From Infirmifilum uzonense (GTDB taxonomy: Archaea; Thermoproteota; Thermoprotei; Thermofilales; Thermofilaceae), in assembly GCF_000993805.1 (NCBI RefSeq), contig NZ_CP009961.1:1170453-1202452 (forward strand): DNA of 32,000 bases, in the 5' to 3' direction. The position numbers were made by a program, and so were the translations under genes. Of the stretch, positions 4,410 to 31,659 are shown in pieces (position 1 is the first letter of the stretch; every line of letters begins with the position of its first letter). Under the pieces are notes generated by a model, which saw only the letters and a list, made by a program, of their open reading frames with translations, did no database searches and was not told where the DNA came from.

Positions 4410-4521
4410 GGGGCCGTAGTCCAGCCTGGTAGGATGCCTGGCACGGCTTTTAAAAGCCGCGGGACTTGGGATCTGGGGACAAGAACCCAGGTGGTCCCGG
4501 GTTCAAATCCCGGCGGCCCCA
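4410..4521 (+). tRNA. tRNA-Pro with about 38 nt of intron sequence. The anticodon is most likely UGG.
   Basis: The acceptor (GGGGCCG/CGGCCCC), D arm (GTCC..GGAT) and T arm (CCGGG TTCAAAT CCCGG) are almost identical to the intron-less tRNA-Pro(GGG) at 15949-16022. The anticodon stem CCTGG/CCAGG encloses 45 nt that include CTTGGGA, an anticodon-loop-like 7-mer with TGG. Confidence 0.8.
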
Positions 4522-9651: not shown

Positions 9652-10728
9652 GTGAATGGTGGGGAGGAGAGAATACTCGTACTCTGCGTTGATCGAGACA
9701 ATGACGTAGGCGATGTTCTAGGTATATCTACCCCTGTGATGGGCGAGGAGAATATCTTGAGAACGGCATTAGAATATATTTTGCGCCGCCCCGAGGACTC
9801 AGATTCAAATGCATTATTCGCAGCAGTCCAAACATACCGAGAACTAGTAAACAAGGGGTACAAAGATAGAGTCGAGATAGCCCTTTTAGCAGGTGAGACG
9901 CAAGAGGGGGTTGAGGCAGACATTAAAATACTACGAGAGCTCGACCAAATTCTTTCCAAAGAGAAGTTTACAGGAGCTATATTAGTCTCAGATGGACCAA
10001 CTGATGAGGCAGTTGCACCTTTAATTCAGTCAAGGCTCCCATTGATCTCGATACGGAGAGTAATCGTCCAACAGTCTAGAGGGGTAGAAGAGACTTTTGT
10101 TCTCCTCGTTAATTATGTAAGGAAGTTATTCATGGAAGAAAAATATCGTAGGTTTTCACTCGGTCTCACAGGGGTTTTTCTAATAGTATATGTTTTCCTT
10201 TCAACACTGCTACCCCAGTTTCTCTGGCCTATTATCCTTGGCTTCACAGGATTAGTTTTAGTTGTGAAGGGCTACAACCTTGATGAGACCCTGCGTGGAA
10301 TCTATTCCTCTAAGCCAATAACCTTTGCCGCGCTCATACTTTCTGCACTGCTGGTTTTGCTTGGAACAATACAAGGTGTTTCTGTTCTTGTACAAAACAT
10401 CCCTAAGGGGTTTTTCGCTGCACTGGGAGATATGATGCTGGCATCTATTGGAGCGCAGTTAATTACTACGGATCTTTTCGTTTTAGCTGCAGCTCTCCCA
10501 ATATTTGGAAGAATCGTAGATACCTTTATATCTTATAAACCTCCGCGAGTCTCAGATGCATTTGCATTGATGACAATCCTAATCTCTAGGCAGTTACTCG
10601 TTGAAGTGGCTAAGTACCTATCCGGTGGAGGCGACATCCGTGGAGTTTTGACGTGGTCCTTTATTGTGCTAGGATTCATTGTGTTTTTCGTATCCATATT
10701 ACCTCTCGAGAGACGTGGCAAGGGGTGA
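9652..10728 (+). CDS. DUF373-family integral membrane protein
   Basis: 358-aa ORF with a GTG start. A soluble N-terminal domain (ILVLCVDRDNDVGD) is followed by about 6 hydrophobic helices. Confidence 0.5.
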   Translation: MNGGEERILVLCVDRDNDVGDVLGISTPVMGEENILRTALEYILRRPEDSDSNALFAAVQTYRELVNKGYKDRVEIALLAGETQEGVEADIKILRELDQILSKEKFTGAILVSDGPTDEAVAPLIQSRLPLISIRRVIVQQSRGVEETFVLLVNYVRKLFMEEKYRRFSLGLTGVFLIVYVFLSTLLPQFLWPIILGFTGLVLVVKGYNLDETLRGIYSSKPITFAALILSALLVLLGTIQGVSVLVQNIPKGFFAALGDMMLASIGAQLITTDLFVLAAALPIFGRIVDTFISYKPPRVSDAFALMTILISRQLLVEVAKYLSGGGDIRGVLTWSFIVLGFIVFFVSILPLERRGKG

Positions 10729-10776
10729 GTTTTACCACTGGAAGAAAAAAGAGTTATATTATTTTTCAAAAGAAAT

Positions 10777-11823
10777 TTGAGTGACTGTAGCCGTAAAGAT
10801 ATTGAGACACTAGTTGAGGCTATTTTTATTTCCGGAAAAATGAGGCAATTATCCCCTAACATCATAGAGGTTTCAGGATTACTTGATATAGTCATGCTTG
10901 AGGAGTATGTATACAGGTCGGCGACACTTCAGGATGTATTTTTGGTCATAAAACATGTAGACCTTTCAGGTTGCCTTGACTTTATGGATTTACTCTGTAC
11001 TAAAGGAACAGGAATAAAAGTTGAAAACCCAGTGATAAGAGTGCTAAGCATAGACAAGTTGTCAAAGTTACCTTCCATAACAGGTTCACTAACATGCCTT
11101 GAAGATATTCTCTCAATAGCTGACCAGCTTTCCTTTAGTAAAATTTATCCCTATGAGGGAAGACCTCACCTAATTATAAATTGTCTCGAGAAAAAAGGTT
11201 ATCTGGGAGTCTTCCTGAAGAGGATGAGAAGGGATAGATTTATCTACCGATCACCCGAGAAGAGAGCGTTCATGCAGTATTCAGCTCTTTCACCAAGGAT
11301 GGCTCTTTTCATGGTAAATTTATCCACGAGGGCTAAGGGTAGGAAAAAGCCCATGACTTTTCTGGATCCTTTCTGCGGCTCTGGCGGCGTCCTGATAGAG
11401 GCTGCTTTGCTAGGTTATTATGCCGTAGGACTGGAAATATTCTACAAACCTGTTAGAGGGGCCCGTCGTAATGTTATTCAGTTAAATCTTTACACAAATG
11501 TGGATCTTATATTAGCGGATGCATCACTTCCACCCTTTAGAGAGAAATCGTTTGATGCGATAGCCTTTGATCCTCCTTATGGACGACTTTCCCCGGTGAA
11601 GGGGCGAGAGTCTGTTGATCCTCTAATAAATTTTCTTTCCTCTGTAAGGTATATATTGAAGAAAAACGGCTCCTGTATATTCCTTTATCCAAGTGGACGT
11701 GAGACGGACAGGTTGACTAAAATGGGATTTACGGAAGAGTGTAAAATATTCGAGCACTCAAGGTTGACAAGATCTTTGTGGTGCTTGCGTGATGAGCGCC
11801 AGGGTCATGTTCTGGGGAGTTAG
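10777..11823 (+). CDS. THUMP-type tRNA (guanine-N2) methyltransferase (Trm11/Trm14-like)
   Basis: 348-aa ORF with a SAM-binding motif (LDPFCGSGGVLIEAA) and the catalytic DPPYG motif. The listed start is TTG, and the true start may be the ATG about 60 nt downstream. Confidence 0.7.
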   Translation: MSDCSRKDIETLVEAIFISGKMRQLSPNIIEVSGLLDIVMLEEYVYRSATLQDVFLVIKHVDLSGCLDFMDLLCTKGTGIKVENPVIRVLSIDKLSKLPSITGSLTCLEDILSIADQLSFSKIYPYEGRPHLIINCLEKKGYLGVFLKRMRRDRFIYRSPEKRAFMQYSALSPRMALFMVNLSTRAKGRKKPMTFLDPFCGSGGVLIEAALLGYYAVGLEIFYKPVRGARRNVIQLNLYTNVDLILADASLPPFREKSFDAIAFDPPYGRLSPVKGRESVDPLINFLSSVRYILKKNGSCIFLYPSGRETDRLTKMGFTEECKIFEHSRLTRSLWCLRDERQGHVLGS

Positions 11824-15657: not shown

Positions 15658-15764
15658 TGCGGGGGCCGGGATTCGAACCCGGGCAGGCCGACGCCAGCGG
15701 ATTTCTAATTTTTCATCTCAGGATCTTAAGTCCGCCCCCTTTGTCCTAGCTCGGGCACCCCCGC
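15658..15764 (-). tRNA. tRNA-Leu(UAA) with a ~22-nt intron at the canonical 37/38 position
   Basis: The reverse complement folds as GCGGGGG / D arm / GCGGA CTTAAG[intron]A TCCGC / long variable arm / CCGGG TTCGAAT CCCGG / CCCCCGC A. Confidence 0.85.
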
Positions 15765-15799: not shown

Positions 15800-15879
15800 T
15801 TCTTGGCTATAGACCGTGAGGAGCATAATAATTTTCACTACAAACTCAGAGCACTTTTCTATGAGGCCCCAGGCAGGCC
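15800..15879 (+). repeat. copy A of an ~80-nt direct repeat
   Basis: It matches 16770-16849 with only 2 mismatches (tcttggctatagaScgtgaggagcataataattttcactacaaactcagagcacttttctatgaggccccaggcagRcc). Confidence 0.9.
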
Positions 15880-15948
15880 AGTTGATTAAAGCGAAGGGTA
15901 AAAAATTGGGCCCGCTGGCATGGACATTCCAGGAGAAAGCAGCATACA

Positions 15949-16022
15949 TGGGGCCGCCGGGATTTGAACCCGGGACCACCAGCGCCCCAGGCTGGCATCC
16001 TACCAAGCTAGACTACGGCCCC
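15949..16022 (-). tRNA. tRNA-Pro(GGG), intron-less
   Basis: The reverse complement gives a perfect 74-nt cloverleaf: GGGGCCG TA GTCT AGCTTGGTA GGAT G CCAGC CTGGGGC GCTGG TGGTC CCGGG TTCAAAT CCCGG CGGCCCC A. Confidence 0.92.
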
Positions 16023-16164
16023 TCGCGTCTTTGTGTAAGGAGAACCCTTAATATAATTTTTACGCGCTACTCTGAGAATAGGGCATCTCATAGCACTTCT
16101 CGCGTTTACGAGACAAGCTTTTTAAGATAGAACCATAGTTTCTAAACGGGATGAAATTTCAGAG

Positions 16165-16695
16165 TTATTCTGAAGAATGATGAGAAGGCATTTGTTTGAC
16201 CGCCGTGACAACGAAGATTTCATCACCCGCACTCTCAATAAGCTTTTGAATCGAGAAGCCTTCAAGGGAAACAATCTTGGTAAGTTTTTTCTTTATGGAG
16301 ATGACAGCAATTCCAGCTGGTTTCAGCACCCTATGAATCTCCCTTATTGCTTCCGGAACCTCGTGGAGAACGGTTATGCAGGCTGCAGCTTCAAAGGCAT
16401 TATCTCGGATAGGAAGTATCTTGGCGTCCGCGCGCAGAGCATCTGAGATAACGCGATGATTTTTGCCTTTGAATATTCTAAGCATTCCTTTAGAAAGGTC
16501 TAGGCATAGGTAGTATTCAGCCTTTTTGAGCATTTCACCAAGGATTCCAGTACCACAACCCACATCAAGTATCTTTTTTGAACCCTCTAAAAATCCATAG
16601 GCTATAAAATTCTTCCTGCCTTGCTCTTCGCCATAAAGCTCGTCATAGAGGGGGGCAAGATCGTCATACGAGAGAGACATAGTCTTTTTACCCAT
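16165..16695 (-). CDS. class I SAM-dependent methyltransferase
   Basis: 176-aa ORF with SAM-binding motif I (ILDVGCGTGILG) and the following acidic loop (CLDLS). The substrate is unknown. Confidence 0.7.
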   Translation of the reverse strand: MGKKTMSLSYDDLAPLYDELYGEEQGRKNFIAYGFLEGSKKILDVGCGTGILGEMLKKAEYYLCLDLSKGMLRIFKGKNHRVISDALRADAKILPIRDNAFEAAACITVLHEVPEAIREIHRVLKPAGIAVISIKKKLTKIVSLEGFSIQKLIESAGDEIFVVTAVKQMPSHHSSE

Positions 16696-16769
16696 ACTCC
16701 TTAGTTTTAAATAAGATGTGGAGAAGGGTTCTCATAAAAGGTTTTGGCCTGACAGTAGCAACGATAGAC

Positions 16770-16849
16770 TTCTTGGCTATAGAGCGTGAGGAGCATAATA
16801 ATTTTCACTACAAACTCAGAGCACTTTTCTATGAGGCCCCAGGCAGACC
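16770..16849 (+). repeat. copy B of the ~80-nt direct repeat
   Basis: See copy A. The two copies are 970 bp apart in direct orientation. Confidence 0.9.
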
Positions 16850-18186: not shown

Positions 18187-18413
18187 TAAAATTGATTATG
18201 TTTCCGTAGATCCTGTTCTGTAGTGTGAGTTTTAAGAGCCAGCCGCGAAGCAGAAAGAATACATCGTCTACCCTTCACTCCTCTTCAGCGGGGATCTTAA
18301 GGTAACACCTTTGACTCTGAGGACACCGCTCTTAGATGACACTGAAACAAAAATAATCCTTGCACCGATACCTGTTTATTGGATATACAGGTAAACTGCG
18401 CGTATTGAGAAAC

Positions 18414-18531
18414 GGCTCCAGCACCACCCTTTCCCGGGGCACGCGGACCCCAGTACTCGGGTTGGCGCACCCCCCTTAGCTTCCGGGTTCGGAATGAGTC
18501 CGGGCGTGGCAGGGGTGCTATGGCCGGAGCC
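18414..18531 (-). rRNA. rrf: 5S ribosomal RNA, stand-alone
   Basis: The reverse complement reads GGCTCCGGCCATAGC...CCCGGACTCATTCCGAACCCGGAAGCTAAG...GGTGCTGGAGCC. It has the universal 5S loop-C/helix-III core, and its ends pair to form helix I. Confidence 0.9.
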
Positions 18532-19791: not shown

Positions 19792-20232
19792 TTGATGGAG
19801 TTAGATGGAGCTGGGCTTGAACGGGAAGTTGAAGAAAAGGTTCAGCATGTGTTAAAGGGTGTTTCAGAAACTCTGGAAAAATATGTCAAGGAAAGGAACC
19901 TTTCAATAGTTGAAGCAAAGGAGCTGTTGGAGTCCTTAGAGCCAAGCTTTAAAATCATTACGAAGAAGTGGGGGCTTCTAATCCTCTACACTCTTCTCCT
20001 AATGGGTCCTTCCTCGTTTAGCAAACTACACGAAGTTACAGGAGTAAACAAAAGAAGTCTTTCAACTAGGCTGAAGGAGCTTGAGAAGGGAGGATTCATT
20101 AAAAGAACTGTTAGGACAGAGCCTCCGATTTCGACGCATTATACTCTCACACAGACAGGACGAGACACTGCATTACTTATGATTCCTCTCATCTACTATG
20201 TATCTAAGAAAATGCCTCTTCACGAATTCTAA
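19792..20232 (+). CDS. HxlR/MarR-type winged-helix transcriptional regulator
   Basis: 146-aa ORF. The pattern KKWGLLILYTLL..GPSSFSKLHEVTGVNKRSLSTRLKELEKGGFIKR...HYTLTQTG matches the HxlR wHTH pattern. Its 3' end overlaps the convergent ATPase gene by 29 nt. Confidence 0.65.
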   Translation: MMELDGAGLEREVEEKVQHVLKGVSETLEKYVKERNLSIVEAKELLESLEPSFKIITKKWGLLILYTLLLMGPSSFSKLHEVTGVNKRSLSTRLKELEKGGFIKRTVRTEPPISTHYTLTQTGRDTALLMIPLIYYVSKKMPLHEF

Positions 20233-21247
20233 GAAATACTTTCCGTGGTCTTGGATCTCCTTGTCTGAAGAAGAGTGCGGTACCCCGCGACGCAAACAAG
20301 ACGTGGTCTTTTTCGTCGTTTGTTATGGAGAATAGAGCTGCGATGTCCCTAATATAGCTCTCAGATCCACTGAGGACCAAGACAAAACCAGCTAATTGAT
20401 ATAATCTGATGTCAAACTCTCGCGGAAGCTGCGAAATAGCTATAAGACTATACCCCCACTTTCGGATTTCCTTATAGAGCGATAGTAGATATTTGGAGAA
20501 CAAGTGCGCTTCCTCTAGAATTATGATCTGTTCTAATCTTTTCTTTACCCCTTGTGAGCGGCGGTAGCCCTGTAGTAGTAAGAGTAAGACTTGTATTGAA
20601 AGTCTCCCTATTTCTTGGGAGACCATAGTTGGAAAATAGAAATAGATGTCCCTATCGGAGAGCTCTGCGATCGTTGGAGCGTCCCCGTGAATTCTTATTA
20701 AATCATCATAGAGCCGACTTATATCGGGATCCTCGTCCACAAATTTTTCCATGGGAGAAAGCGATCCCTCTTTGAGACATCTAAGTATGAGTTTTCTGAT
20801 CACGTTTCTAGACCCATAGTATGCATAGATTAACTCGATATACCTGCTGAGCTCGCTTGCATACTCTTCGTGTGACCAGCCGGGTATACTTAGAATGTTT
20901 ATCTTATCAACTGTCATTTTTATTGAATTATCAAATAATCGTTTGTATGCCTCCTCGCCATGAGGATCGATTACCCAGGCCTTGACCCCTTTCTCGCGTG
21001 CCTCCAAAATTATATGCCTTGAAAGCGTCGACTTTCCACTACCACTCGTTCCAAGTATTACACCATGTACGTTGGGTAGACTGTAAGGATTAAGATATAT
21101 ATTCCTCCCCTTGTCATCAACGCCTAATAATATTCCTTGTCCTTCTTCACGAGGTGGTACTACAGCCAGCGGAGAGAGCACGGGTATCACATCACCCGCT
21201 AGAACCATAACGTACCTCTTCTCGAGTAAATGGCGTAGTGATTGCAC
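20204..21247 (-). CDS. VirB4/HerA-superfamily P-loop ATPase (TrbE/CedB-like, ATPase domain only)
   Basis: 347-aa ORF with Walker A (GVILGTSGSGKST), VIDPHGE, Walker B (IIILEEAH) and a following ISQ motif. This arrangement is typical of DUF87/AAA_10 VirB4-HerA ATPases. It is the last gene of a 5-gene minus-strand operon. Confidence 0.65.
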   Translation of the reverse strand: MQSLRHLLEKRYVMVLAGDVIPVLSPLAVVPPREEGQGILLGVDDKGRNIYLNPYSLPNVHGVILGTSGSGKSTLSRHIILEAREKGVKAWVIDPHGEEAYKRLFDNSIKMTVDKINILSIPGWSHEEYASELSRYIELIYAYYGSRNVIRKLILRCLKEGSLSPMEKFVDEDPDISRLYDDLIRIHGDAPTIAELSDRDIYFYFPTMVSQEIGRLSIQVLLLLLQGYRRSQGVKKRLEQIIILEEAHLFSKYLLSLYKEIRKWGYSLIAISQLPREFDIRLYQLAGFVLVLSGSESYIRDIAALFSITNDEKDHVLFASRGTALFFRQGDPRPRKVFLRIREEAFS

Positions 21248-21255
21248 GGTGATAA

Positions 21256-22329
21256 TTATTCTAGAGTTTTTAAGGCCAACATATCAGGTTCGAAGTGCAA
21301 GCCCATACGCTCCATGGTATCTCTAATTTCTTTAGGTGCTATTAGTAAGCCGTTAACCAGGAAAACAGGTTCTCTTCTTTCCCATCTTCTCCTAGAGGCG
21401 AAAAAATATTTCTGACTTTCGTGGAGCATGCTCAGCTTATCAAGAGCTGTTCCCATTTCATAAACCCTGTAAGCATGAGAATCTAGGCTGGCAGCAATTT
21501 CCCATGGCGCAGGCTTTAACCTCATGGCCATGAAGGGTATAGTGGACACAATACTGTATACGACGCGGGCTCTGGTGTATATTTCTCTCAAGGATGGATA
21601 GGTATAGGTAACTGTAGCTTTTTTTAGACCCCATACTTTTAAACCTCCGTTCTGTATGCTTACTTTATAAACAATTCCCTTGCCCGATGAAAGAGCAAGT
21701 ATCTCTAGTGCCAGGATTACTACAAGAGGTGGGAATAACCCGGATACAAGTATCGTAGATATAAGGGTTAGGAGCTGTCGTACAGGATTCGTTTTCACCT
21801 CGATCAGCTCAGGAGGCCTTAATAAGCCTTTTAACTCCGACCCAGCCAGAACACGATAGGAGCAACCTAGAAGTTCAAAACCTCTTAAAAATGCTTCCCT
21901 CATGCTTTTCAGCTCGTCTTTGATCCTTTTTCCCTCGTATTCACAGACCTTAAGGACAATAAACATCTCTCCTTTAACAGTGATGAATATATATTCACCA
22001 CCTGCTGTGAAAGCAGTAGAGAAAAAAGAAAGTGAGCTTAACCAGAAATCCTTCTCGTTAAGATCGTAGCAACCATGACGGCAGTCCAAAACCTGGAATC
22101 CAAGATATACGCAAGGCTTATTACCTGAGTAAGAGAAGCAAATCTTCCTTAAACATTCCAGGTGATTTAATGGAAGACCACCATGCATCATATGCACTAT
22201 ATACGGATAAATCTCTCTTGAGATAACTACGATAGATAATCCAAGTAATATTAAGGATAGCTCAATGGAATATGCTCGTGTAAAGAAGCCAGCTATTAAG
22301 AACATGAGAAAGATTATAGCCCTACCCAC
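21256..22329 (-). CDS. membrane protein of unknown function, possibly a VirB3/VirB4 N-terminal-domain analogue
   Basis: 357-aa ORF with two N-terminal hydrophobic helices, one central hydrophobic segment, and soluble regions. There is an 8-nt gap to the ATPase gene and an 8-nt overlap with the upstream gene. No motif was recognised. Confidence 0.5.
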   Translation of the reverse strand: MGRAIIFLMFLIAGFFTRAYSIELSLILLGLSIVVISREIYPYIVHMMHGGLPLNHLECLRKICFSYSGNKPCVYLGFQVLDCRHGCYDLNEKDFWLSSLSFFSTAFTAGGEYIFITVKGEMFIVLKVCEYEGKRIKDELKSMREAFLRGFELLGCSYRVLAGSELKGLLRPPELIEVKTNPVRQLLTLISTILVSGLFPPLVVILALEILALSSGKGIVYKVSIQNGGLKVWGLKKATVTYTYPSLREIYTRARVVYSIVSTIPFMAMRLKPAPWEIAASLDSHAYRVYEMGTALDKLSMLHESQKYFFASRRRWERREPVFLVNGLLIAPKEIRDTMERMGLHFEPDMLALKTLE

Positions 22330-24778
22330 TAATATCCGACCTCAATTTCTCCCATATTATTCTCCAGCGATCATTTTTTGCAGCCCCAAAAGTAAGCCCC
22401 GGATCCTTACCCAGATACATTTTCTTAGCCATCTTCACTATAGACTCGTTCTCGTTTTTAAGCTGGTCAAGAGCTTTTAACCGATAGAGGAGCTGGAGTG
22501 ATTCGACCTCGTATCCTTTCTCAGCATACAGCTTGTTAAGTCTAAGTAATTCCTTAAAGACGCGAGGATTTGCAAGCCAGATAAATAGAAGAATCCTATC
22601 TATGCTCTCTATACTTGTACTATTTTCCACAAGGTCAGATAACTCCTTAGTGTGCTCAGATCTAATCTTTCGGATATCAACAGTAACTAGTTCACGGTAT
22701 TTTATGGTCATCAGCTCAGCTAATTTTGGGTTTAGCTTCCTTAATGTTATATCGTTGAGTTTGAAGTAAAGCTGTCCGCGTGAAAAAGCATGATAACCTA
22801 AACTAGAGACTAGTATTCTCTTAAGGGGGCTCAAGATTCTTTGAGCACCATGACTTATTGCGATATCGAATCGTCTCGCGGAAATCCTGAATTTCTTCTT
22901 CGATAAAAGATAGAAGTTATGGAGAAATATATTTCTCTTTCTCTCATTAACTACCTTTAAGAATAAGGGTACAGGTGCCTCGTTGACTTTTTCAAGTGCT
23001 GAGATCAGGCGACTCTTGTTTGGTATGCTTGTAATTCTGACACCCGAAGGAGTAATTATTTTAACTAAAATTTTATCCCGATCACCAGGCTTCGACCTCG
23101 TCGAGAAAAATACATTTATGGTTCTTGAGAGATTTGCTATTTTAGTCTTTGAAATAGTTTGACGGAAGAAAGTGGATAAAGCTACTTCTAAGCTGCCACC
23201 TAAGCCTACAATGCTAGTAGTTTCAATTAAAATAACAAAGAGAGCATTATAGAGAACGATGAATGAGCCAAGAAAATTAATAGGTGCACTAATTAAGTGT
23301 TCAGACACTTGACTTATTATTTCCCAGTGCGAGACATAAATGGGTATAAAGGACTCGTTCCAAACTCCCCTGCCTATTATCGTTATATTCAAAATGGGTT
23401 GGAAGATTTTGGTCTCGTTGCACTTGTCTAGTGAGAGATATACTGTTTGCTCCTCGAATCGTGGAATAGGGAAGTTTGTGACGTTGGATTCAAGAAAAAC
23501 ATCCATTTCTGGAAAGACTCTTACTCTCTTGAGCCATTCCGCACTCCTTTGTAAAGCACGCTGATACCACAAGGCATCTATCCTTCGTCCTGGGGGTAGA
23601 GCCCTAGAAGTTGAAATGTTTATGAGGCATGAAAGACCTTCTGACTCGAATCTTTCTATGGTAAATCCGCCGCCTCTAAAACTGATGAAGACCCCCTTTT
23701 TCAAACTACTTTCCCCTAGATAGTAGCTCACATAACCCTCTCCTCTCACAGAGGGGTGAATAGGTTTGTCTCCTGCGAAGGCTATCACATGACCCGTATG
23801 ACCTTGTGGGGTCTCAATTATGTCTACTGGGAGTGAAACAGTCAAGTTTACCGTTAAGCCACTACTGACGTTAAAGACAGCAGGCCATACGTAACAACTG
23901 CAATAACTCCACGCTCTATCCTTCTCTTCCAGATAACAGCAACTATTGAGAGTAAAGTTTGTCCAATACTCGGTAACCCACAGAGCCTTGTATTTCCCAG
24001 CAGGAAGTATCAGGATTGACCCTTCCCTTACTCTTGAAACGTACAAATTTCCTTCGTGGTCCCGTAAACCTAACAAAATAAGCGGTCTGTATATCGGAGT
24101 TCCAGATGCTTCCCGTACTTGAACGTGAAGGTAACCTAGACCACTTGGAGGATTTATTCCAGGAACTTCACTTAATCTTATCTCAGGGAAATTCCTTACC
24201 TGTAATGGTAGAATTACACTTACTGCCAAAAAAAGTAACCATACAGGAAGTATTAGTCTTCGCAGGCGTGGAATGAAAATTAGAGGTATAAGTGTTAGTA
24301 GTAGAGAATAGATGAAGGGTAAAAGGGTCGTCAGCCTCAACAATAAATGAGAGATAAATGCCGTCGTTCCAATAAGGTTACCGAGGGTCTCTAAAAAGCT
24401 AAGAGACACATGCATCCAAGGCTGATATAGTGAGAGTAGTTCTGCAGTTGCGGGTCCACCTGCTCCGGCGAAGACTATCCCAATGATTATATCAAAAACC
24501 GCTATAGACAAGGATAAGGAGACTATCCTACTGTGATATTCTTTCATCCTTGAAATCAACTGGGTAAGGGTCTCCGAGACCGCCCAGTATAAGCTGTTTC
24601 CAACCTTACTCAGTTCAGGATAGAAAATAACTAGCAGAGAAAAAGATGCTAGAAATCCTATCAACTCGGATAAGAATATTCTCAGAGCACGTTTCTTGAA
24701 TCCCAGAGACCAGTAAAGTAAAACGACAATACTTGTAGAGGCAAGTCCGACTCCAAATACCAGCTCATCTTGAGGCAA
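22322..24778 (-). CDS. large polytopic membrane protein with an extracellular sequon- and Cys-containing domain and a cytoplasmic helical C-terminal domain
   Basis: 818-aa ORF. About 6 hydrophobic helices lie in residues 1-192. Residues 195-495 carry many N-x-S/T sequons and a CC..C.C cluster. A further hydrophobic segment spans residues 497-535, followed by a basic helical tail of about 280 aa. Confidence 0.6.
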   Translation of the reverse strand: MPQDELVFGVGLASTSIVVLLYWSLGFKKRALRIFLSELIGFLASFSLLVIFYPELSKVGNSLYWAVSETLTQLISRMKEYHSRIVSLSLSIAVFDIIIGIVFAGAGGPATAELLSLYQPWMHVSLSFLETLGNLIGTTAFISHLLLRLTTLLPFIYSLLLTLIPLIFIPRLRRLILPVWLLFLAVSVILPLQVRNFPEIRLSEVPGINPPSGLGYLHVQVREASGTPIYRPLILLGLRDHEGNLYVSRVREGSILILPAGKYKALWVTEYWTNFTLNSCCYLEEKDRAWSYCSCYVWPAVFNVSSGLTVNLTVSLPVDIIETPQGHTGHVIAFAGDKPIHPSVRGEGYVSYYLGESSLKKGVFISFRGGGFTIERFESEGLSCLINISTSRALPPGRRIDALWYQRALQRSAEWLKRVRVFPEMDVFLESNVTNFPIPRFEEQTVYLSLDKCNETKIFQPILNITIIGRGVWNESFIPIYVSHWEIISQVSEHLISAPINFLGSFIVLYNALFVILIETTSIVGLGGSLEVALSTFFRQTISKTKIANLSRTINVFFSTRSKPGDRDKILVKIITPSGVRITSIPNKSRLISALEKVNEAPVPLFLKVVNERKRNIFLHNFYLLSKKKFRISARRFDIAISHGAQRILSPLKRILVSSLGYHAFSRGQLYFKLNDITLRKLNPKLAELMTIKYRELVTVDIRKIRSEHTKELSDLVENSTSIESIDRILLFIWLANPRVFKELLRLNKLYAEKGYEVESLQLLYRLKALDQLKNENESIVKMAKKMYLGKDPGLTFGAAKNDRWRIIWEKLRSDISG

Positions 24779-25570
24779 TTAGATCCTCACCACTGAAACG
24801 TAAATAGAGTCAAACACCCCCGCTAAACCATAACCTGCTACTATCGAAATACTAAATGCTAAAGCTATGAGTGTGGCACTTTCGCCCAACTTGATCGTAA
24901 TGTCGCTGACCTTAGAGGAAACACTTATCCAGTCTACAGGGTTTAATGGAGAAATTTCCGGGATTTTTTCAAGATCTCTTGAAACTATTTGTGCGCTGAG
25001 GATAAATGAGATGCTTGTAGCAAGATATATGGCCAGAAGTGATGCTCCTACGCGTCTAATCTTTGGCACAGGTAGAAGAATAGAGCCTATAAGAGCTAAG
25101 TAAGGGGCAAGCACCGAGAAGAATTTTGCTGCATAGCTTAGATGCATATAGAAAATTGCTAATATCGAGAGCTCTGAGATGGCCCAACCTGTTGCAGCTC
25201 CTAGAACACTTGAGAGCGGTGATGTTAACGGAGCCGAAGCTAAGAGAGCACGTTCTGTTTGCACATACATAATTGTGGAGATAGCTTTTTGGCTGGCCTC
25301 CCAAAACACGCTGCTTGAATATGAAATCTTCTCGCTTACTGTACCCGTTGCATTAAAACTTAGAGGAATTTGAATATATGATGCGATCAGGTCTGCAATC
25401 CAAAAAATCACTTGTAATGCGAGCAGGTGGATTAATATGTCTACGACAGCTTCAAGACTCTCGATGGCCTCTCTCCTTTTCCCAAGAATCCATTTTACAG
25501 AACCAGAGAGAATGTATATAATGGCGGCAAGGCCTGCAGCATAGTCGGCTAAAAGCATGATGTCAACCAC
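24779..25570 (-). CDS. polytopic integral membrane protein (candidate VirB6/CedA-like channel component)
   Basis: 263-aa ORF that is almost entirely hydrophobic helices (about 6-7). It abuts the downstream gene directly and overlaps the upstream gene by 8 nt. Confidence 0.5.
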   Translation of the reverse strand: MVDIMLLADYAAGLAAIIYILSGSVKWILGKRREAIESLEAVVDILIHLLALQVIFWIADLIASYIQIPLSFNATGTVSEKISYSSSVFWEASQKAISTIMYVQTERALLASAPLTSPLSSVLGAATGWAISELSILAIFYMHLSYAAKFFSVLAPYLALIGSILLPVPKIRRVGASLLAIYLATSISFILSAQIVSRDLEKIPEISPLNPVDWISVSSKVSDITIKLGESATLIALAFSISIVAGYGLAGVFDSIYVSVVRI

Positions 25571-26054
25571 CTAGGGAAGTTGTTATTAGACGCCATCCCC
25601 GCTGCAGTAGGTTTTCCATGATCTTAGCGACTGAGGAGATTTCTGGAATTCCAAGCGAGTTAAGTATCATTATCACGAAAAACAACAGTGGTAATATGGC
25701 CAGTGTTTCAGCAGCCCTGATGAATTTCGAAACCGCTATACTGCGTCCGAAACTTCCTCCGGTGACCCAGGAGAGAGCTGCATCGAGTATGAGCAATATG
25801 AAGCCAATGATTCCTATCCCGAATGTTATAGCAGCTAATAATGCAATCACGTCCACAAATGGTTGAAAAATCTTGGAAAGTAGTTCTTCTGGGCTAACAG
25901 TAAGTAAGGTGGCTGGAGGTGTAAGCATAAGCGCTAAGTTATCGTCTACTTCTTTCCAGTCTACTCTTCGTTTCAAACGGGGACGACTCCTCTTTAGATA
26001 TCCTTCGTAAACTACTTGGAGAAATCTCAGTTTTAATTTCCTTATGAACATCAA
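25563..26054 (-). CDS. small two-helix membrane protein (candidate VirB2/CedA1/TedC-like pilin)
   Basis: 163-aa ORF. The likely true start is the ATG at 26051. A basic N-terminal ~60 aa is followed by two long hydrophobic helices (VDVIALLAAITFGIGIIGFILLILDAAL and AETLAILPLLFFVIMILNSLGI). These are joined by a short loop containing R/K. Confidence 0.45.
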   Translation of the reverse strand: MMFIRKLKLRFLQVVYEGYLKRSRPRLKRRVDWKEVDDNLALMLTPPATLLTVSPEELLSKIFQPFVDVIALLAAITFGIGIIGFILLILDAALSWVTGGSFGRSIAVSKFIRAAETLAILPLLFFVIMILNSLGIPEISSVAKIMENLLQRGWRLITTSLGG

Positions 26055-26137
26055 CAGTTGATTCCTATAAACTCTTAAAAGCCAGACATAGTATAAGTGC
26101 TCCCGAATATCGATTTTTAAAGATACTAGGCTTTCTA
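26055..26137. promoter_or_regulatory. divergent promoter region of the two cluster operons
   Basis: 83-bp AT-rich spacer. The minus strand reads TTTTAAGA (26073-26080) about 26 nt upstream of the ATG at 26051. The plus strand reads TTTTTAAAGA (26114-26123) about 25-30 nt upstream of the ATG at 26147. Both fit leaderless transcripts. Confidence 0.45.
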
Positions 26138-26866
26138 GTGGGAGTCATGACCTTAGTAGTAGCTACAGTTTCTGGACATAAAGGTGGTACCGGCAAGACT
26201 GTCGTGGCTTCTCTCTTGAGCTACCATCTATCGACACGCATCGGGGAGAAAGTACTGGTTATAGATCTAGGAGAAGCAGGCAGCAGTACGACACTTCTCC
26301 TCGAGGAGGACCCAGGACCTCCATACATAAGCGATTTTTTCCTAGGCAGAGCCACATGGTCTGATGTTATAGTCGTTTCAAACTTGTCAGATAACTTGAT
26401 GATTGTTCCATGCAGTGGAGAAGTGGGCCCTGTTGATCCCACGTCGCTTGAATACCTAATTGATAGGACTTCAAAACACTTCGAGTATATAATATTGGAT
26501 TTGCCGGCATACCCTGGAAGCTTGTACGACCCAGTGGTAGGATTAGCCGAAGTTATTATCACAGTGTTTAACCCGGATTTTCTATCATTCCAGGCGGTAT
26601 CCACATGGCTTAAACGTCGAGATTTTTTCAGGAGGAAGCTTATCCTGCCTTTGTTAAACAAGTACTTTCTCTTCATGGGGGACTGGAAAGATCTCGCCCG
26701 GGATGAATTTGGAACAGTGTTCACAATGCCCTTCGATGCCGCCCTGCAGTTTTCATTTGCAAGAAATATTGGTGAAGCCTACAAGAACGCCAGTAACCGT
26801 GTCAAAAAAGACCTTGAGGTATTGACTTACAGACTCCAGAAGCCCTTACTTAAGGTGACTGGCTAA
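26138..26866 (+). CDS. ParA/MinD-family ATPase (CpaE/TadZ-like)
   Basis: 242-aa ORF starting at GTG 26138, although the ATG at 26147 is the more likely start. It has the deviant Walker A GHKGGTGKT, an A' motif (VLVIDLGE) and Walker B (YIILDLPA). Confidence 0.75.
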   Translation: MGVMTLVVATVSGHKGGTGKTVVASLLSYHLSTRIGEKVLVIDLGEAGSSTTLLLEEDPGPPYISDFFLGRATWSDVIVVSNLSDNLMIVPCSGEVGPVDPTSLEYLIDRTSKHFEYIILDLPAYPGSLYDPVVGLAEVIITVFNPDFLSFQAVSTWLKRRDFFRRKLILPLLNKYFLFMGDWKDLARDEFGTVFTMPFDAALQFSFARNIGEAYKNASNRVKKDLEVLTYRLQKPLLKVTG

Positions 26867-27213
26867 TGAGCTTTAGAAGACCTTTTACCTCTGTTAAGGA
26901 TAACGAGGAACCCCCTATTTTACCGCTACCCTCTTTGAGTCAAAAAAGCCCGGTAAAAATAGAGGATAAAAACATAAGCGATAACAGTGAGTCTCTCGGC
27001 AAAGGCATAAGAAATCTTGAGGCGGTTTTGCGGAGCCTCGGGGTTGAGGAAAACATCTCTACACGGATAACAAATAGGCTTAACGAGATTGACAGGGAGC
27101 TAAGCAGAATAAACAGTGAAATAGCAAAGCTAGAGCGCGAGAAAGAGAACCTTCTGGCAGAGCGCGAGAAAATCACCAAAGCCTTGAGACTATTTTCCGG
27201 GATCACGGAATGA
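26866..27213 (+). CDS. small coiled-coil protein of unknown function
   Basis: 115-aa ORF. The N-terminal half is Pro/Ser-rich and looks disordered. The C-terminal heptad-like region reads RLNEIDRELSRINSEIAKLEREKENLLAEREKI. It overlaps the upstream gene by 1 nt and the downstream gene by 4 nt. Confidence 0.55.
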   Translation: MSFRRPFTSVKDNEEPPILPLPSLSQKSPVKIEDKNISDNSESLGKGIRNLEAVLRSLGVEENISTRITNRLNEIDRELSRINSEIAKLEREKENLLAEREKITKALRLFSGITE

Positions 27214-28361
27214 AGCTATCGCTTAGCTTTTTAAAAAACAAGAAAAAAGGAGATGAGACCATTGCTAAGGTCGCAGTAAATACCCTTTTACCTGAAGGAG
27301 CTAAAATCATATTAAAGAACCACTCGGGATTTCTCTTCAGTTATGACTCGAAGCTGGAGATACTTCCCCTTAAAACGCATCCTGTTTGGAAAAATCTTTC
27401 CCCTCTTTTCATGGCGCGTGAAGTTGAGGAGATATGGGTTTTCGAGTCGAGAACTGTTGTGACCATAAAGAATCTAGGACGAATTAGTATAGAGGGGCTT
27501 CCAAGTAAAGAAGAACTTGAGGATATCATAGTCTCGATAATAGCCTCGACTGGTTTAAAGGTAGATATGAGAAGGCCTAGAGGCGTCGTAGACGTGGACG
27601 AGTGGAGAGTGTCTGTACAGTTAACAAGCGGTGGACAAACACAAATCGTTGCAACAAAGCTTTCAAGTATCCCTCCCTTAAAGAGTCTCTTGGATCCTCT
27701 AACAGCTGCCAGAATGATTCTCCTCTTATTGAGGCCCTCCGTAGTAGTGATCCTCGGTCCACCTGGCTCTGGGAAGACTACTCTCCTTAACAGCATCGTG
27801 GGCGAAGTTGGTAAGATGTACCCACATCTCCACATCGCAGTTATTGAGAAGTATAAAGAGCTTACATTGAGGGAGGGTTGGTTCTCTTGGATAGTCAGCG
27901 AAAATCTCGTGGAGGGGGTAAGGTGGGCGATGCGCTACTACAGACCCGACATGGTTGTAATAGGGGAAATAATGGCTGAAGACTTCTGGAGCGTTATCGA
28001 GCCTAGCCGTAGCGGGTTACCAACAATTACAACTTTTCACTCGCCCAGCATCAGAAAAGCAATAAAAATTCTCTCAGACTCTCTGAGGGCTCAGCTAGGA
28101 TATGGAGATGAAAGTAGTGCACTGCAATACATCGACGTATTTGTTCAAACTTTTAAAAGGGTTACCCCGCAAGGAGTGGAAAGAGGAGTTGAGAACATAC
28201 TTTTGAGCGATGGTCAAAGACTCATCCCAATATACTCTGACGGACAAGCCGCTCCCAAAGAGATATTCGAGAAGGCTTTACCAGATCAGCTCTACATCGG
28301 TTCAACCGCAAAAACAATGAGAGAAATATTCCAGAGATATGGATTGACACCCGAAAGGTAG
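27210..28361 (+). CDS. type II/IV secretion-family hexameric ATPase (VirB11/TadA/FlaI-like)
   Basis: 383-aa ORF with Walker A (LGPPGSGKTT), Walker B (RPDMVVIGEI) and a His box (TITTFHSPS), in the order characteristic of GspE/VirB11-superfamily ATPases. Confidence 0.75.
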   Translation: MKLSLSFLKNKKKGDETIAKVAVNTLLPEGAKIILKNHSGFLFSYDSKLEILPLKTHPVWKNLSPLFMAREVEEIWVFESRTVVTIKNLGRISIEGLPSKEELEDIIVSIIASTGLKVDMRRPRGVVDVDEWRVSVQLTSGGQTQIVATKLSSIPPLKSLLDPLTAARMILLLLRPSVVVILGPPGSGKTTLLNSIVGEVGKMYPHLHIAVIEKYKELTLREGWFSWIVSENLVEGVRWAMRYYRPDMVVIGEIMAEDFWSVIEPSRSGLPTITTFHSPSIRKAIKILSDSLRAQLGYGDESSALQYIDVFVQTFKRVTPQGVERGVENILLSDGQRLIPIYSDGQAAPKEIFEKALPDQLYIGSTAKTMREIFQRYGLTPER

Positions 28362-28368
28362 CAAAATC

Positions 28369-29769
28369 TTGCGTGTCCTAGAGGTATTCGAGAAGGCCGG
28401 GCTTAAGCCTAGGCCCGGACAGGTTGAGGCTGCTGAGGCTTTAGCTGGTGTCGAGGGTGATGCATTACTGGTAGCGCCCACAGGGTTTGGAAAAACCCTT
28501 GCCGTATTGTCTGCTTTTAGATCTTCTGGGAGGCTTCCTGTCTTGTGGCTGGTGAGGAGCCTGGAGCTCGGAAGTAGGATAAGCGGGGATGCCTTAAGGC
28601 TAGACTTGAAGCCCTTCATCGCAGCCGGGAGGGCCAGGTCCTGCAGCGTGAAGACGGACGACCCGGAAGAATACTGCTTGATTAACAGGTCACGCTGCCC
28701 CTTCTTCCAAAACTTGAAAGAGGGGGTTCCAGACCTCTTCTATACGAGTTGGGAGGAGATACCCTCCCATCTCTGCAGGTACTATGCACAAGACTTCTAC
28801 ATCGCCGCCGCCGACGTAGTGGTTCAGAACTATAGGCGGAGAGTAGTTGGAAGCTACAGAGCAGTAGTTGTGGACGAGGCACATAACCTCTTGAAGCCCA
28901 ACATTGTTGAGATAAAGGGTTTAGGAGAGGCCCTAGACGCCCTAGACGCACTGAACCCGGAACTGGGGGAGAAGATAAGAGGGATTATCAATAAGGGGGT
29001 AGCCTCAATAGACTTGGATGTCATAGAAGAGACGCTCATCGTTTACAGGGAAGAATTCGCGAAGGGGTCATTCATGGCCCGGAGACTACTACCCCTGGTA
29101 AGGTTTCTCAAAGCCGCTTCTAGGGGAATCGTCTACAGGGAAGAGGGTAAAGTCATGGTCGCCCTGCCTCCCTGGAGGCCCAGCATCGGCCCCCGCATCT
29201 ACCTTAGCGCTACTATTCCTAAACCCATCGAAGACCTCTTTCAAGCCGCCGTTATCCGGGTGCCTTCAGAGCCGAGGAAGGCCCTCGTGGTCGGCGACGT
29301 GACCACTAGGTACGGGGAGGAGACGATATGGGGGTACATGAAGCTGCTTTCAAGCCTGAAAAAGAGGCATAAACGCATCCTGGCATTCGCGACTGACAGG
29401 ATCATAGTCAAACTGGTGAGCGTAATAGACTTTCTCGACGAAAAGCCCCCGGACGACTGGCGCGGCCTGGCAATGTTTAATGTCTTCGGGCGTTTCAGCG
29501 AGGGGGTAGACCTGCCGGCAGACGCTGTCGTAATGGTCGGGGCCCCCTTCCTTCCACCCGACGTGACGGAGCGCCTGCGAAAGTACTACTACCGGATGGG
29601 CATCGACCCCGACAACGCCCGGTGGATACCCATGGTTACAGCAACACTCCAGGCTATAGGCAGGGCCACGCGCAGTCCAGAGGCAAGCCCAGAGATCATT
29701 CTCGCCGACTACCGCTTCAAAAAGTTCGCGAAATACTTCGAGCCAGTGCTACACCTTCAAGATTCCTAG
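28369..29769 (+). CDS. XPD/Rad3/DinG-family SF2 helicase, short form with a putative 4Fe-4S domain
   Basis: 466-aa ORF with a TTG start as listed. It has motif I (APTGFGKT), four Cys between motifs Ia and II (C-x10-C-x6-C-x27-C), motif II (VVDEAHNL), motif III (YLSATIP), motif V (GRFSEGVDLP) and motif VI (QAIGRATR). Its G+C content is visibly higher than that of the neighbouring genes. Confidence 0.75.
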   Translation: MRVLEVFEKAGLKPRPGQVEAAEALAGVEGDALLVAPTGFGKTLAVLSAFRSSGRLPVLWLVRSLELGSRISGDALRLDLKPFIAAGRARSCSVKTDDPEEYCLINRSRCPFFQNLKEGVPDLFYTSWEEIPSHLCRYYAQDFYIAAADVVVQNYRRRVVGSYRAVVVDEAHNLLKPNIVEIKGLGEALDALDALNPELGEKIRGIINKGVASIDLDVIEETLIVYREEFAKGSFMARRLLPLVRFLKAASRGIVYREEGKVMVALPPWRPSIGPRIYLSATIPKPIEDLFQAAVIRVPSEPRKALVVGDVTTRYGEETIWGYMKLLSSLKKRHKRILAFATDRIIVKLVSVIDFLDEKPPDDWRGLAMFNVFGRFSEGVDLPADAVVMVGAPFLPPDVTERLRKYYYRMGIDPDNARWIPMVTATLQAIGRATRSPEASPEIILADYRFKKFAKYFEPVLHLQDS

Positions 29770-29974: not shown

Positions 29975-30229
29975 TTACAGCTTTCCAAAAGACTGGAGAG
30001 TAGAAGATTTCCAGCCCTCGAGAATGCCCTCGATCCCGCTTTGGAGTTCTTCCAGCCCCCTCAGCATTACATCTATGCTGTCGAGAGCCTTCCCTTAGTC
30101 TTGCAGGATGACAGCGTAGGCCCTCAACGAGAAGAAAGATAACACCAGGAGCAAGAGCCAACCCCCCAGAGGAATAACCCGGGAGCCACCCCCCAGTGGT
30201 GCAGGCCGCCGGCAACATTTTGGAAGCAC
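29975..30229 (-). pseudogene. copy 3 of the small coiled-coil ORF family, interrupted by an in-frame TAA
   Basis: In the family frame the minus strand reads ..GGSRVIPLGGWLLLLVLSFFSLRAYAVILQD*GKALDSIDVMLRGLEELQSGIEGILEG.. The stop at 30095-30097 replaces the Tyr/His codon of copies 1 and 2. The 105-aa ORF in the track (29901-30218) is in a different frame. Confidence 0.6.
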
Positions 30230-31567: not shown

Positions 31568-31659
31568 CGGGCCCGCCGGGACTCGAACCCGGGACCTACG
31601 GCTATCTACGAGCCGTATGCTCCGCAGGCCGCCACGCTTCCATGCTACGCCACGGGCCC
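31568..31659 (-). tRNA. tRNA-Arg(GCG) with an ~18-nt intron at the 37/38 position
   Basis: The reverse complement reads GGGCCCG TG GCGT AGCATGGAA GCGT G GCGGC CTGCGG[AGCATACGGCTCGTAGAT]A GCCGT AGGTC CCGGG TTCGAGT CCCGG CGGGCCC G. Confidence 0.8.

Follow-up and report, generated by a model that had tools for sequence, protein, structure and literature searches.

To explain how the Ced and Ted DNA-exchange systems of archaea obtain single-stranded DNA (ssDNA) without a relaxase, unlinked HerA-NurA resection machinery has been proposed (PMC9905601). Here we asked what is encoded by a cluster of nine packed genes, arranged in two divergent operons at positions 20204-29769 of a 32,000-nt stretch of contig NZ_CP009961.1 (Infirmifilum uzonense, Thermofilaceae), referred to below as the window. 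The initial annotation had proposed a minimal chromosomal machine, derived from a type IV secretion system (T4SS) and resembling Ced and Ted. This central idea held, the strongest new evidence being the VirB4 fold predicted for one of the membrane proteins. Taken together, our findings make it probable that the locus encodes a chromosomally fixed, T4SS-derived envelope machine of the Ced/Ted class, belonging to a separate lineage unrelated in sequence to those known.

The window is chromosomal DNA of an I. uzonense-like archaeon, a member of Thermofilaceae and not of Desulfurococcales, and the nine open reading frames (ORFs) lie where they had been annotated. The minus-strand proteins are named P163, M263, M818, M357 and A347, the number being the length in amino acids (aa); labels from L001 to L042 designate the public contigs and loci used for comparison. 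The features are as follows.

20204-21247, minus strand: ATPase A347, 347 aa
21256-22329, minus strand: membrane protein M357, 357 aa
22322-24778, minus strand: membrane protein M818, 818 aa
24779-25570, minus strand: membrane protein M263, 263 aa
25563-26054, minus strand: candidate pilin P163, 163 aa
26055-26137, no strand: divergent intergenic region, 83 bp, 33.7% G+C
26138-26866, plus strand: ParA/MinD ATPase, 242 aa
26866-27213, plus strand: coiled-coil protein, 115 aa
27210-28361, plus strand: secretion-superfamily ATPase (T2SSE), 383 aa
28369-29769, plus strand: XPD/DinG-type helicase, 466 aa

The ORF coordinates also bear out the annotated junctions. Read in ascending coordinates, the minus-operon genes are joined by an 8-nt gap, an 8-nt overlap, a direct abutment and an 8-nt overlap, while in the plus operon the first three genes overlap by 1 nt and 4 nt and the last two are 7 nt apart. 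The same genes were found by independent gene callers on five near-identical public contigs, and M357 is 100% identical to MA03_06150 of I. uzonense. The spacer is indeed AT-rich, with 33.7% G+C compared to 44.5% for the window. Direct reading of its sequence revealed two TATA-like elements. One, TTTTTAAAG, precedes the start of the plus operon by about 10-20 nt, and the other, CTTTTAAGAGTTTATAGG, lies on the minus strand and faces the minus operon, so that each operon has a putative promoter.

Searches of Pfam, NCBIfam and the PDB upheld the superfamily labels of A347 and of the 242-, 383- and 466-aa proteins. P163, M263, M357 and M818 showed no sequence or profile link to any Pfam, NCBIfam, PHROG, PADLOC or PDB entry. 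M357 had been annotated simply as a membrane protein. Its AlphaFold2 (AF2) model, built from 20 sequences, had a predicted local distance difference test score (pLDDT) of 86.8 and a predicted template modelling score (pTM) of 0.82. When this model was compared with the PDB using Foldseek, the top 12 matches all came from R388 entries built around TrwK/VirB4 (8rtd, 8rtb, 7o42 and 7o43), with E values of 9e-6 to 7.5e-4, a probability of 1.00 and chain lengths (457-937 residues) that fit TrwK. Unrelated folds (flavoenzymes) came next in the list, from E 3e-3. The model comprises an N-terminal transmembrane hairpin and two soluble α/β domains with a second transmembrane hairpin (182-214) between them; hydropathy likewise predicts 2 + 2 transmembrane helices. 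The annotated membrane protein thus stood, and the fold makes it more than that: M357 appears to be a membrane-anchored homologue of the VirB4 N-terminal domain. In VirB3-VirB4 fusions, the position of its N-terminal hairpin is occupied by VirB3. The first soluble domain carries a conserved Cys/His cluster (C59, C64, C83, H85 and C87), and an almost invariant basic helix, RRRWERRE, lies close to the C-terminus; these may be sites that bind metal and nucleic acid or a partner. No similarity was detected between M357 and the N-terminus of TraC from the Sulfolobus plasmid pTC, and a BFVD search returned a few large Bacillus-phage proteins of unknown nature, which was uninformative.

M357 has no P-loop, and the gene for A347, which would supply the ATPase domain, begins 8 nt downstream. 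The most fitting interpretation of the pair is therefore a VirB4 divided between two genes, one for the membrane anchor and N-terminal domain (M357) and one for the ATPase domain (A347). Together, the M357 fold and A347 would make up a VirB4-family ATPase with its characteristic N-terminal domain, split and with an ATPase part equally near HerA. A347 is a P-loop ATPase of the HerA/VirB4/CedB/CedD clade (FtsK-HerA superfamily), with Walker A GTSGSGKST and Walker B LEEAH. It matched Pfam DUF87 (4e-10) and the NCBIfam models for CedD (1e-10), VirB4-like proteins (3e-9 and 1e-8) and CedB (3e-5), the CedB match spanning the whole domain. All these scores were far below the equivalog cut-offs, A347 reaching 40.5 bits for CedD (cut-off 600) and 22.8 bits for CedB (cut-off 700), so that it is not a Ced equivalog. 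CedB and CedD have themselves been placed in the HerA clade (PMC11868833), which matches the affinities of A347. A profile of 19 A347 sequences scored about equally against HerA-clade chains (5e-12 to 4e-11) and VirB4 (4ag5, 1.5e-10) in the PDB, and the sequence alone therefore cannot separate the two. In the original label of VirB4/HerA type, the clade placement stood while VirB4 was not singled out from HerA; A347 is the putative equivalent of the VirB4 C-terminal ATPase domain.

Among 72,556 plasmids, tblastn with A347 gave matches in two Sulfolobus plasmids only. The protein aligned to the C-terminal half of pTC TraC (621 aa) with 93% query coverage, 24% identity and E 3e-6. No phage match was found with A347, and neither M357 nor the helicase had a match among these plasmids or in phages. 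Scanning a genome collection with the ATPase alignment yielded 600 generic P-loop candidates and no relative, and a rescan with the single protein gave one locus.

A VirB6-like protein had been claimed as well. The AF2 model of M263 (23 homologues, pLDDT 91.0, pTM 0.85) shows six long helices, and hydropathy predicts about 6 transmembrane helices. M263 had no Pfam or PDB sequence match. In the Foldseek search against the PDB, ranks 1, 2, 4, 6 and 11 were taken by chains of 260-272 residues from the R388 TrwJ/VirB5-TrwI/VirB6 stalk entries (7o3v, 8rt9 and 8rtd), which are read as TrwI/VirB6 judging by their length. These best matches agree with the claim and are weak (E 0.12-0.31, template modelling scores of 0.31-0.38); no type IV pilus-type platform proteins were returned. 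They are suggestive in context, and M263 is a candidate VirB6/CedA/TedA-like channel subunit. Its family is small: at E <=0.001, 1.84 billion proteins yielded 29 representatives, of which some 22 have a similar length.

M818 provided a second member of this kind. Its N-terminal membrane domain (about residues 5-201) is homologous to the M263 family (hhalign probability 94.9%, E 4.8e-8). Because this N-terminus is a clear M263 paralogue, the locus would have two VirB6-like proteins, one of them extended. A predicted extracellular domain of about 300 aa (196-497) follows, rich in cysteines and sequons and with invariant Cys and Trp residues, then a transmembrane helix (498-526) and, in the predicted topology, a basic cytoplasmic tail of about 290 aa; hydropathy gives about 5 + 1 transmembrane helices. 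M818 matched nothing in the PDB or Pfam. With its outer domain and cytoplasmic tail, it resembles the "extended VirB6" proteins of bacteria. Its counterparts are 1021 aa long in L042 and 1086 aa in L008, where the protein has an M263-like N-terminus.

The two-helix, pilin-like protein of the initial annotation, P163, found support in hydropathy (2 transmembrane helices), in an alignment of four orthologues and in AxA-type cleavage sites of divergent orthologues. Its gene is the first of the minus operon. In the alignment, a basic leader and a weak hydrophobic region precede a conserved mature part starting at IFQPF.D, in which hydrophobic helices at about 62-98 and 113-140 are joined by an invariant loop, SW.TGGSFGRS. 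Comparison of P163 with the N-terminal hairpin of M263 was not significant (hhalign E 0.022 and 0.006, probability 2-6%); the published similarities between VirB2 and the VirB6 N-terminus, and between CedA1 and the CedA N-terminus, go in the same direction. Divergent orthologues carry signal-peptidase-I-type sites (marked by a slash) just before the core, namely MRRR...AHA/VP in L042, which is a textbook Sec leader, AVA/QP in L017 and VEA/QP in L016, an arrangement that can be likened to that of the long-leader VirB2/TraA pilins. The TedC site is AVA/QA (PMC9905601). This two-helix, leader-processed appearance makes P163 a candidate VirB2/TedC-type propilin. Neither the single sequence nor the profile matched any PDB chain, and the PDB is expected to hold a TedC chain (8DFT/8DFU, as given in PMC11823120).

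The plus operon begins with the 242-aa ParA/MinD ATPase, which has a deviant Walker A motif (HKGGTGKT) and matched Pfam AAA_31 (3e-11), the NCBIfam archaeal MinD model (6e-10) and a ParA-like PHROG (1e-19). It corresponds to the VirC1/ParA-like gene found in Ted loci, ParA/MinD (VirC1-like) genes being a published feature of these loci (PMC9905601). Since Ted loci already include such a gene, the ParA is not a novelty, contrary to the initial view of it as an unusual addition. The 115-aa protein is a coiled coil in its C-terminal half and gave coiled-coil-type matches only in Pfam and NCBIfam. Its gene overlaps both neighbours, is translationally coupled to them and has the same position in four species; the protein may be an adaptor between ParA and the secretion ATPase.

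The 383-aa protein is a hexameric secretion-superfamily ATPase of the GspE/PilT/DotB/VirB11/FlaI class with intact motifs (Walker A GPPGSGKTT, Walker B RPDMVVIGEI and His box TFHSPS). Its membership of the superfamily is clear from Pfam T2SSE (4e-10, 39.4 bits for a cut-off of 24.9). The NCBIfam models ranked VirB11 (6e-9), TrbB (1e-8), DotB (1e-7) and FlaI (3e-7), the VirB11 score being 35 bits for a cut-off of 250. Against the PDB, the profile placed DotB first (5e-9), followed by afGspE (7e-7), FlaI (9e-7), PilT (1e-5), CpaF (2.5e-5) and, last, VirB11 (2e-4). As DotB, GspE, FlaI, PilT and CpaF all rank before VirB11, the VirB11/TadA-type label given at the outset is not established. A Pfam scan of the cluster revealed no T2SSF platform protein, which argues for a DotB/VirB11-like accessory role rather than that of a type IV pilus motor. 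On the same grounds we rejected the idea that the locus encodes a type IV pilus or Tad system: neither the cluster nor the scanned flanks gave a T2SSF, pilin or peptidase family match, and no platform protein, class III pilin or prepilin peptidase is present.

The last protein of the operon, previously described as a short Fe-S XPD-like helicase, fits this description well. It has the superfamily 2 (SF2) motifs of the XPD/DinG/Rad3 family (Walker A APTGFGKT, DEAH box VDEAHN and motif VI QAIGRATR), and C92, C103, C110 and C136, invariant in four species, form a four-cysteine, 4Fe-4S-type motif. It matched Pfam Helicase_C_2 (2e-12, 48 bits for a cut-off of 25) and XPD in the PDB (1e-6), is shorter than XPD, and stays below the Rad3 equivalog (34 bits compared to 247). 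In PADLOC, the CRISPR-associated typeIV_DinG model (2e-28) was far stronger than Rad3/XPD proper (1e-8). When metagenomes were scanned with the helicase alignment, two close relatives turned up, both on short contigs, and the remaining matches were generic XPD-like genes that had no other member of the nine-gene set around them. The scan was uninformative on co-occurrence.

The composition of this gene differs from that of its neighbours. It has a GC content of 0.55 and a GC content at third codon positions (GC3) of 0.655, compared to a GC3 of 0.43 +/- 0.04 in the flanking genes and 0.39-0.49 in the other cluster genes. The shift begins and ends precisely at the gene borders, and the orthologues in three other species are not atypical in GC for their loci, which suggests that the helicase gene alone was replaced from a GC-richer relative.

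Is the locus conserved beyond this genome? All nine genes, in the same order and orientation, were present in Thermofilum pendens Hrk5 (L006), I. lucidum (L011) and an Infirmifilum metagenome-assembled genome (MAG; L010), with tblastn identities of 29-68%. The synteny thus covers four Thermofilaceae species from two genera. In these genomes the flank on the A347 side is the same (HxlR, geranylgeranyl reductase and a GFO/IDH oxidoreductase), whereas the DNA past the helicase gene differs among the four species. The contig-limited L017 has the same start of the cluster. On a divergent Thermofilaceae metagenome contig (L016:927-7020), the M263, M818 and A347 orthologues are each split into two ORFs, reflecting either decay in that lineage or assembly errors.

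Outside the family, an uncultured lineage carries a five-gene module in the same order (L042:4581-11116; 137, 274, 1021, 375 and 371 aa). All five proteins match the module profiles, and the module adjoins topoisomerase VI genes, with no plus operon next to it. A reduced version in L008 (2561-11074; same in L009) comprises the M357 and A347 homologues and the 1086-aa protein, with no plus operon within 10 kb. Five small proteins precede it in L008, with N-termini like class III (type IV pilin) signal peptides, for instance MVLKSRG/QILLLAVIIFG, and the L008/L009 locus could be a hybrid of a VirB4-type motor with type IV pilins. The five-gene module is therefore the conserved unit, and only in Thermofilaceae has it so far been seen paired with the plus operon. 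The question of whether the two operons co-occur elsewhere is thus answered in part: they do so beyond this genome, in four species, and only within this one family.

The locus had also been considered chromosomal and non-mobile, and the conserved synteny and housekeeping flanks agree with this. Housekeeping genes in the window include those for the thermosome, TFB, endonuclease V, methionine aminopeptidase, geranylgeranyl reductase and EF-1β. As annotated, a scan of 20 flanking ORFs turned up no integrase, relaxase, coupling protein or prepilin peptidase; it showed no transposase either, and no relaxase or VirD4-type coupling protein match rose above cut-off in the cluster or in these flanks. 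Eight of the nine cluster genes have a host-like composition, and the codon usage of the cluster correlates with that of the flanks (r = 0.89) nearly as the flanks do with each other (0.91).

Some observations concern the surroundings of the cluster. The window matches the MAG contig L001 with 99.5% identity up to position 30208, roughly 440 bp after the stop codon of the helicase gene; at this breakpoint, L001 continues with a 922-aa gene. A segment of about 0.8 kb around 15876-16770 also differs. The region 30000-30200 is GC-rich (0.56), with no convincing ORF or RNA family and a sub-threshold C/D-box snoRNA match (E 0.55). A 5S rRNA gene stands alone at 18413-18531, 1.7 kb away from the cluster. 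The window also contains four tRNA genes, of which three (4410-4521, 15658-15764 and 31568-31659) are 92-112 nt long and probably contain introns.

The above findings allow us to propose how the machine would work. P163 would be exported, cleaved by signal peptidase I and polymerised into a VirB2/TedC-type pilus or conduit, while M263 and M818, as paralogous VirB6-like proteins, would form the membrane channel or assembly platform, to which M818 would contribute a large, glycosylated outer domain as well as a cytoplasmic tail. M357 and A347 would constitute a VirB4-like energising ring beneath the channel. The divergent plus operon would provide the cytoplasmic side: the DotB/VirB11-class hexameric ATPase may dock on the VirB4 ring, and the ParA/MinD ATPase with its coiled-coil partner may position the machine or recruit substrate, as VirC1 does. 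The Fe-S XPD/DinG-type helicase would unwind chromosomal DNA into ssDNA for export, or process incoming ssDNA. It could thereby stand in for a relaxase or a TraI helicase, both of which, to our knowledge, archaea lack. What our data show is the structure of the genes, their conservation, the assignments to folds and families and the chromosomal setting, whereas the model infers that a pilus is formed, that DNA is transported, in which direction it moves and that the two operons are physically coupled.

Several observations weigh against the assignment to a T4SS-derived machine. Besides the statistically weak match of M263 to VirB6 (template modelling scores below 0.4) and the equal proximity of A347 to HerA, the Foldseek output does not state which residues align, which makes the match of M357 to the N-terminal part of VirB4 an assignment of ours. 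P163 has no detectable sequence similarity to TedC, CedA1 or VirB2. The best single profile match of A347 is a defence-system protein, mad8 of the MADS system (PADLOC, 1e-19, full length). Close A347 homologues (35-37% identity) also stand alone between a NOG1-type GTPase and eIF5A in L012, L013 and L014 (about 10001-11100), a conserved housekeeping context with no membrane partners nearby. Finally, the plus operon does not adjoin the module in L008 or L042, which leaves synteny within a single family as the basis for coupling the two operons.

This last point raises the possibility that the two operons are unrelated neighbours, a T4SS-like minus operon beside an independent cytoplasmic module for DNA handling or segregation. 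Such a view would account for the module of L042 and its reduced form in L008/L009; in Thermofilaceae, where alone the co-occurrence is documented, the A347-side flank is syntenic too, and the spacer sequence is not conserved between the species compared. Yet the divergent pairing has been kept across two genera, with proteins 29-54% identical, while the DNA past the helicase is not conserved. T2SSE ATPases normally work with an envelope machine, and this one has no T2SSF platform in the cluster; in addition, ParA/MinD is a recurrent partner of Ted loci. We consider unrelated neighbours unlikely. A T4SS-like machine that does not move DNA, whether an adhesive or other surface filament or a protein secretion system, with an incidental helicase, would be compatible with the lack of a relaxase, coupling protein or nuclease in the cluster and scanned flanks, with the type-IV-pilin-like N-termini found beside the same ATPase pair in L008/L009, and with the large extracellular domain of M818, which could be an adhesin. 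This appears quite improbable given that the Fe-S helicase is dedicated and translationally linked to the secretion ATPase, and that Ced and Ted, the only characterised archaeal chromosomal relatives of T4SSs, are DNA-exchange systems (PMC9905601, PMC11868833).

The initial annotation had kept open an anti-virus or anti-plasmid defence island, consisting of a membrane-anchored HerA-like ATPase and a DinG-like helicase, and the PADLOC matches of A347 to mad8 and of the helicase to type IV DinG go in this direction. These matches are explained by the folds that such ATPases and helicases have in common. The cluster contains no further component of MADS or CRISPR systems and no methylase or nuclease, the only additional matches being sub-threshold P-loop ones to mad3. 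Known defence systems offer no role for proteins with fold matches to VirB4 and VirB6 or for a pilin-like gene. With its partner genes absent and the locus fixed at one chromosomal position in four species, not variably present, we rejected a defence island as very unlikely. A remnant of an integrated conjugative plasmid, or integrative and conjugative element (ICE), was rejected as well, and we regard it as having hardly any likelihood. It could draw on the sole plasmid relatives of A347 being VirB4-like genes of Sulfolobus plasmids, on the atypical GC3 of the helicase gene and on the strain-level breakpoint beyond it. However, no integrase or replication gene was present among the scanned ORFs (attachment-site repeats were not searched for), eight of nine genes are host-like in composition, and M357 and the helicase have no plasmid match (M263, M818 and P163 were not searched in plasmids). 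The absence of an integrase and an insertion site that is the same in two genera make an ICE remnant unlikely.

How does the proposed T4SS-derived machine compare with the known ones? Ted, described in Thermoproteales, comprises TedA (VirB6-like), TedB (VirB4-like), the TedC pilin, a CedD-like HerA-like gene (TedD), ParA/MinD and sometimes Rad50 (PMC9905601, PMC11823120). Like Ted, the cluster appears to be a chromosomal, domesticated T4SS derivative of Thermoprotei without a relaxase. In both, ParA/MinD shares a locus with a HerA/VirB4-clade ATPase, a pilin-like protein bearing a signal-peptidase-I-type site and a polytopic VirB6-like protein, the last two being candidates in the cluster. The cluster differs by the lack of detectable TedC similarity, by a VirB4 distributed over two genes, one for the membrane-anchored N-terminal domain and one for the ATPase, and by two candidate VirB6-like paralogues, one extended. 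The HerA-like and Rad50 neighbours of Ted are replaced here by the secretion ATPase, the coiled-coil protein and the XPD/DinG-type helicase, and the Ted description did not cover Thermofilaceae, the host family of the cluster.

Ced is known from Sulfolobales, Desulfurococcales and Acidilobales and comprises CedA, CedA1/A2, CedB, CedD and CedE (PMC11868833). It resembles the cluster in the scores of A347 against the NCBIfam CedD and CedB models, in two-helix pilin candidates, in paralogous VirB6-like proteins (CedA/CedE there, the candidates M263/M818 here) and in a VirB4 N-terminal domain spread over separate polypeptides, the N-terminal domains of CedB and CedD matching different parts of it (PMC11868833). 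Conversely, the scores of A347 stay far below the family cut-offs (40 bits with a cut-off of 600 for CedD, 23 bits with one of 700 for CedB). The pilins of Ced have no signal peptide, its genes are dispersed and rely on Ups pili, and its published descriptions include neither a ParA nor a secretion ATPase or helicase. Thermofilales proteins have been scored as 'VirB4' and 'CedD' in a study whose supplement does not list them (PMC11868833).

With the bacterial T4SSs (R388 Trw, VirB/D4 and Dot/Icm), the cluster shares the VirB4 fold of M357, the best match of M263 to VirB6, a candidate pilin resembling VirB2, a second hexameric ATPase of the DotB/VirB11 class and a ParA comparable to VirC1. Unlike these systems, it has no VirB5, VirB7, VirB8, VirB9, VirB10, VirD4 or relaxase, its VirB4 is split, its locus is chromosomal and not mobile, and it has an XPD-type helicase instead of the superfamily 1 helicase TraI/TrwC. 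Its host has a single membrane and an S-layer, unlike the hosts of bacterial T4SSs. The Sulfolobus conjugative plasmids (pTC, pNOB8 family) resemble the cluster through VirB4/TrbE-like TraC and DUF87 proteins, which are the only plasmid matches of A347. They differ in that identity is 23-24%, M357 and the helicase are without a plasmid match, and the window holds no plasmid backbone genes.

Full-text literature searches returned no description of this locus or of a secretion-superfamily ATPase in Ced or Ted, and no XPD-type helicase linked to an archaeal T4SS. The initial annotation had found the gene combination unfamiliar; the ParA being known from Ted, what appears undescribed is the addition of the secretion ATPase and the helicase. 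The cluster is distinctive in its split VirB4, its pair of candidate VirB6-like proteins and its linked operon for ParA, a coiled-coil protein, a secretion ATPase and an Fe-S helicase. It is probably a T4SS-derived system of the Ced/Ted class, conserved and chromosomal, in a lineage where none had been described before. Domesticated conjugation machinery would thereby be extended to another order of Thermoprotei, with a defined five-gene core module that is also found in uncultured lineages. The split VirB4, consisting of a membrane-anchored N-terminal-domain protein and a free ATPase, bears on the idea that CedB and CedD are "two halves of VirB4" (PMC11868833). With a dedicated helicase and a second hexameric ATPase encoded right beside a T4SS-like envelope module, the locus provides testable candidates for the source of ssDNA. 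We tentatively suggest, as a possibility with somewhat less than even chances, that it represents a third independent domesticated archaeal conjugation lineage beside Ced and Ted and, unlike these two, a self-contained one, in which the dedicated Fe-S XPD/DinG-type helicase and the DotB/VirB11-class ATPase, both recruited by ParA and the coiled-coil protein, would produce ssDNA and feed it to a split-VirB4/double-VirB6 channel. If true, this would constitute a relaxase-independent route for chromosomal DNA exchange and would give a concrete answer as to where archaeal T4SS-like systems obtain their ssDNA substrate.

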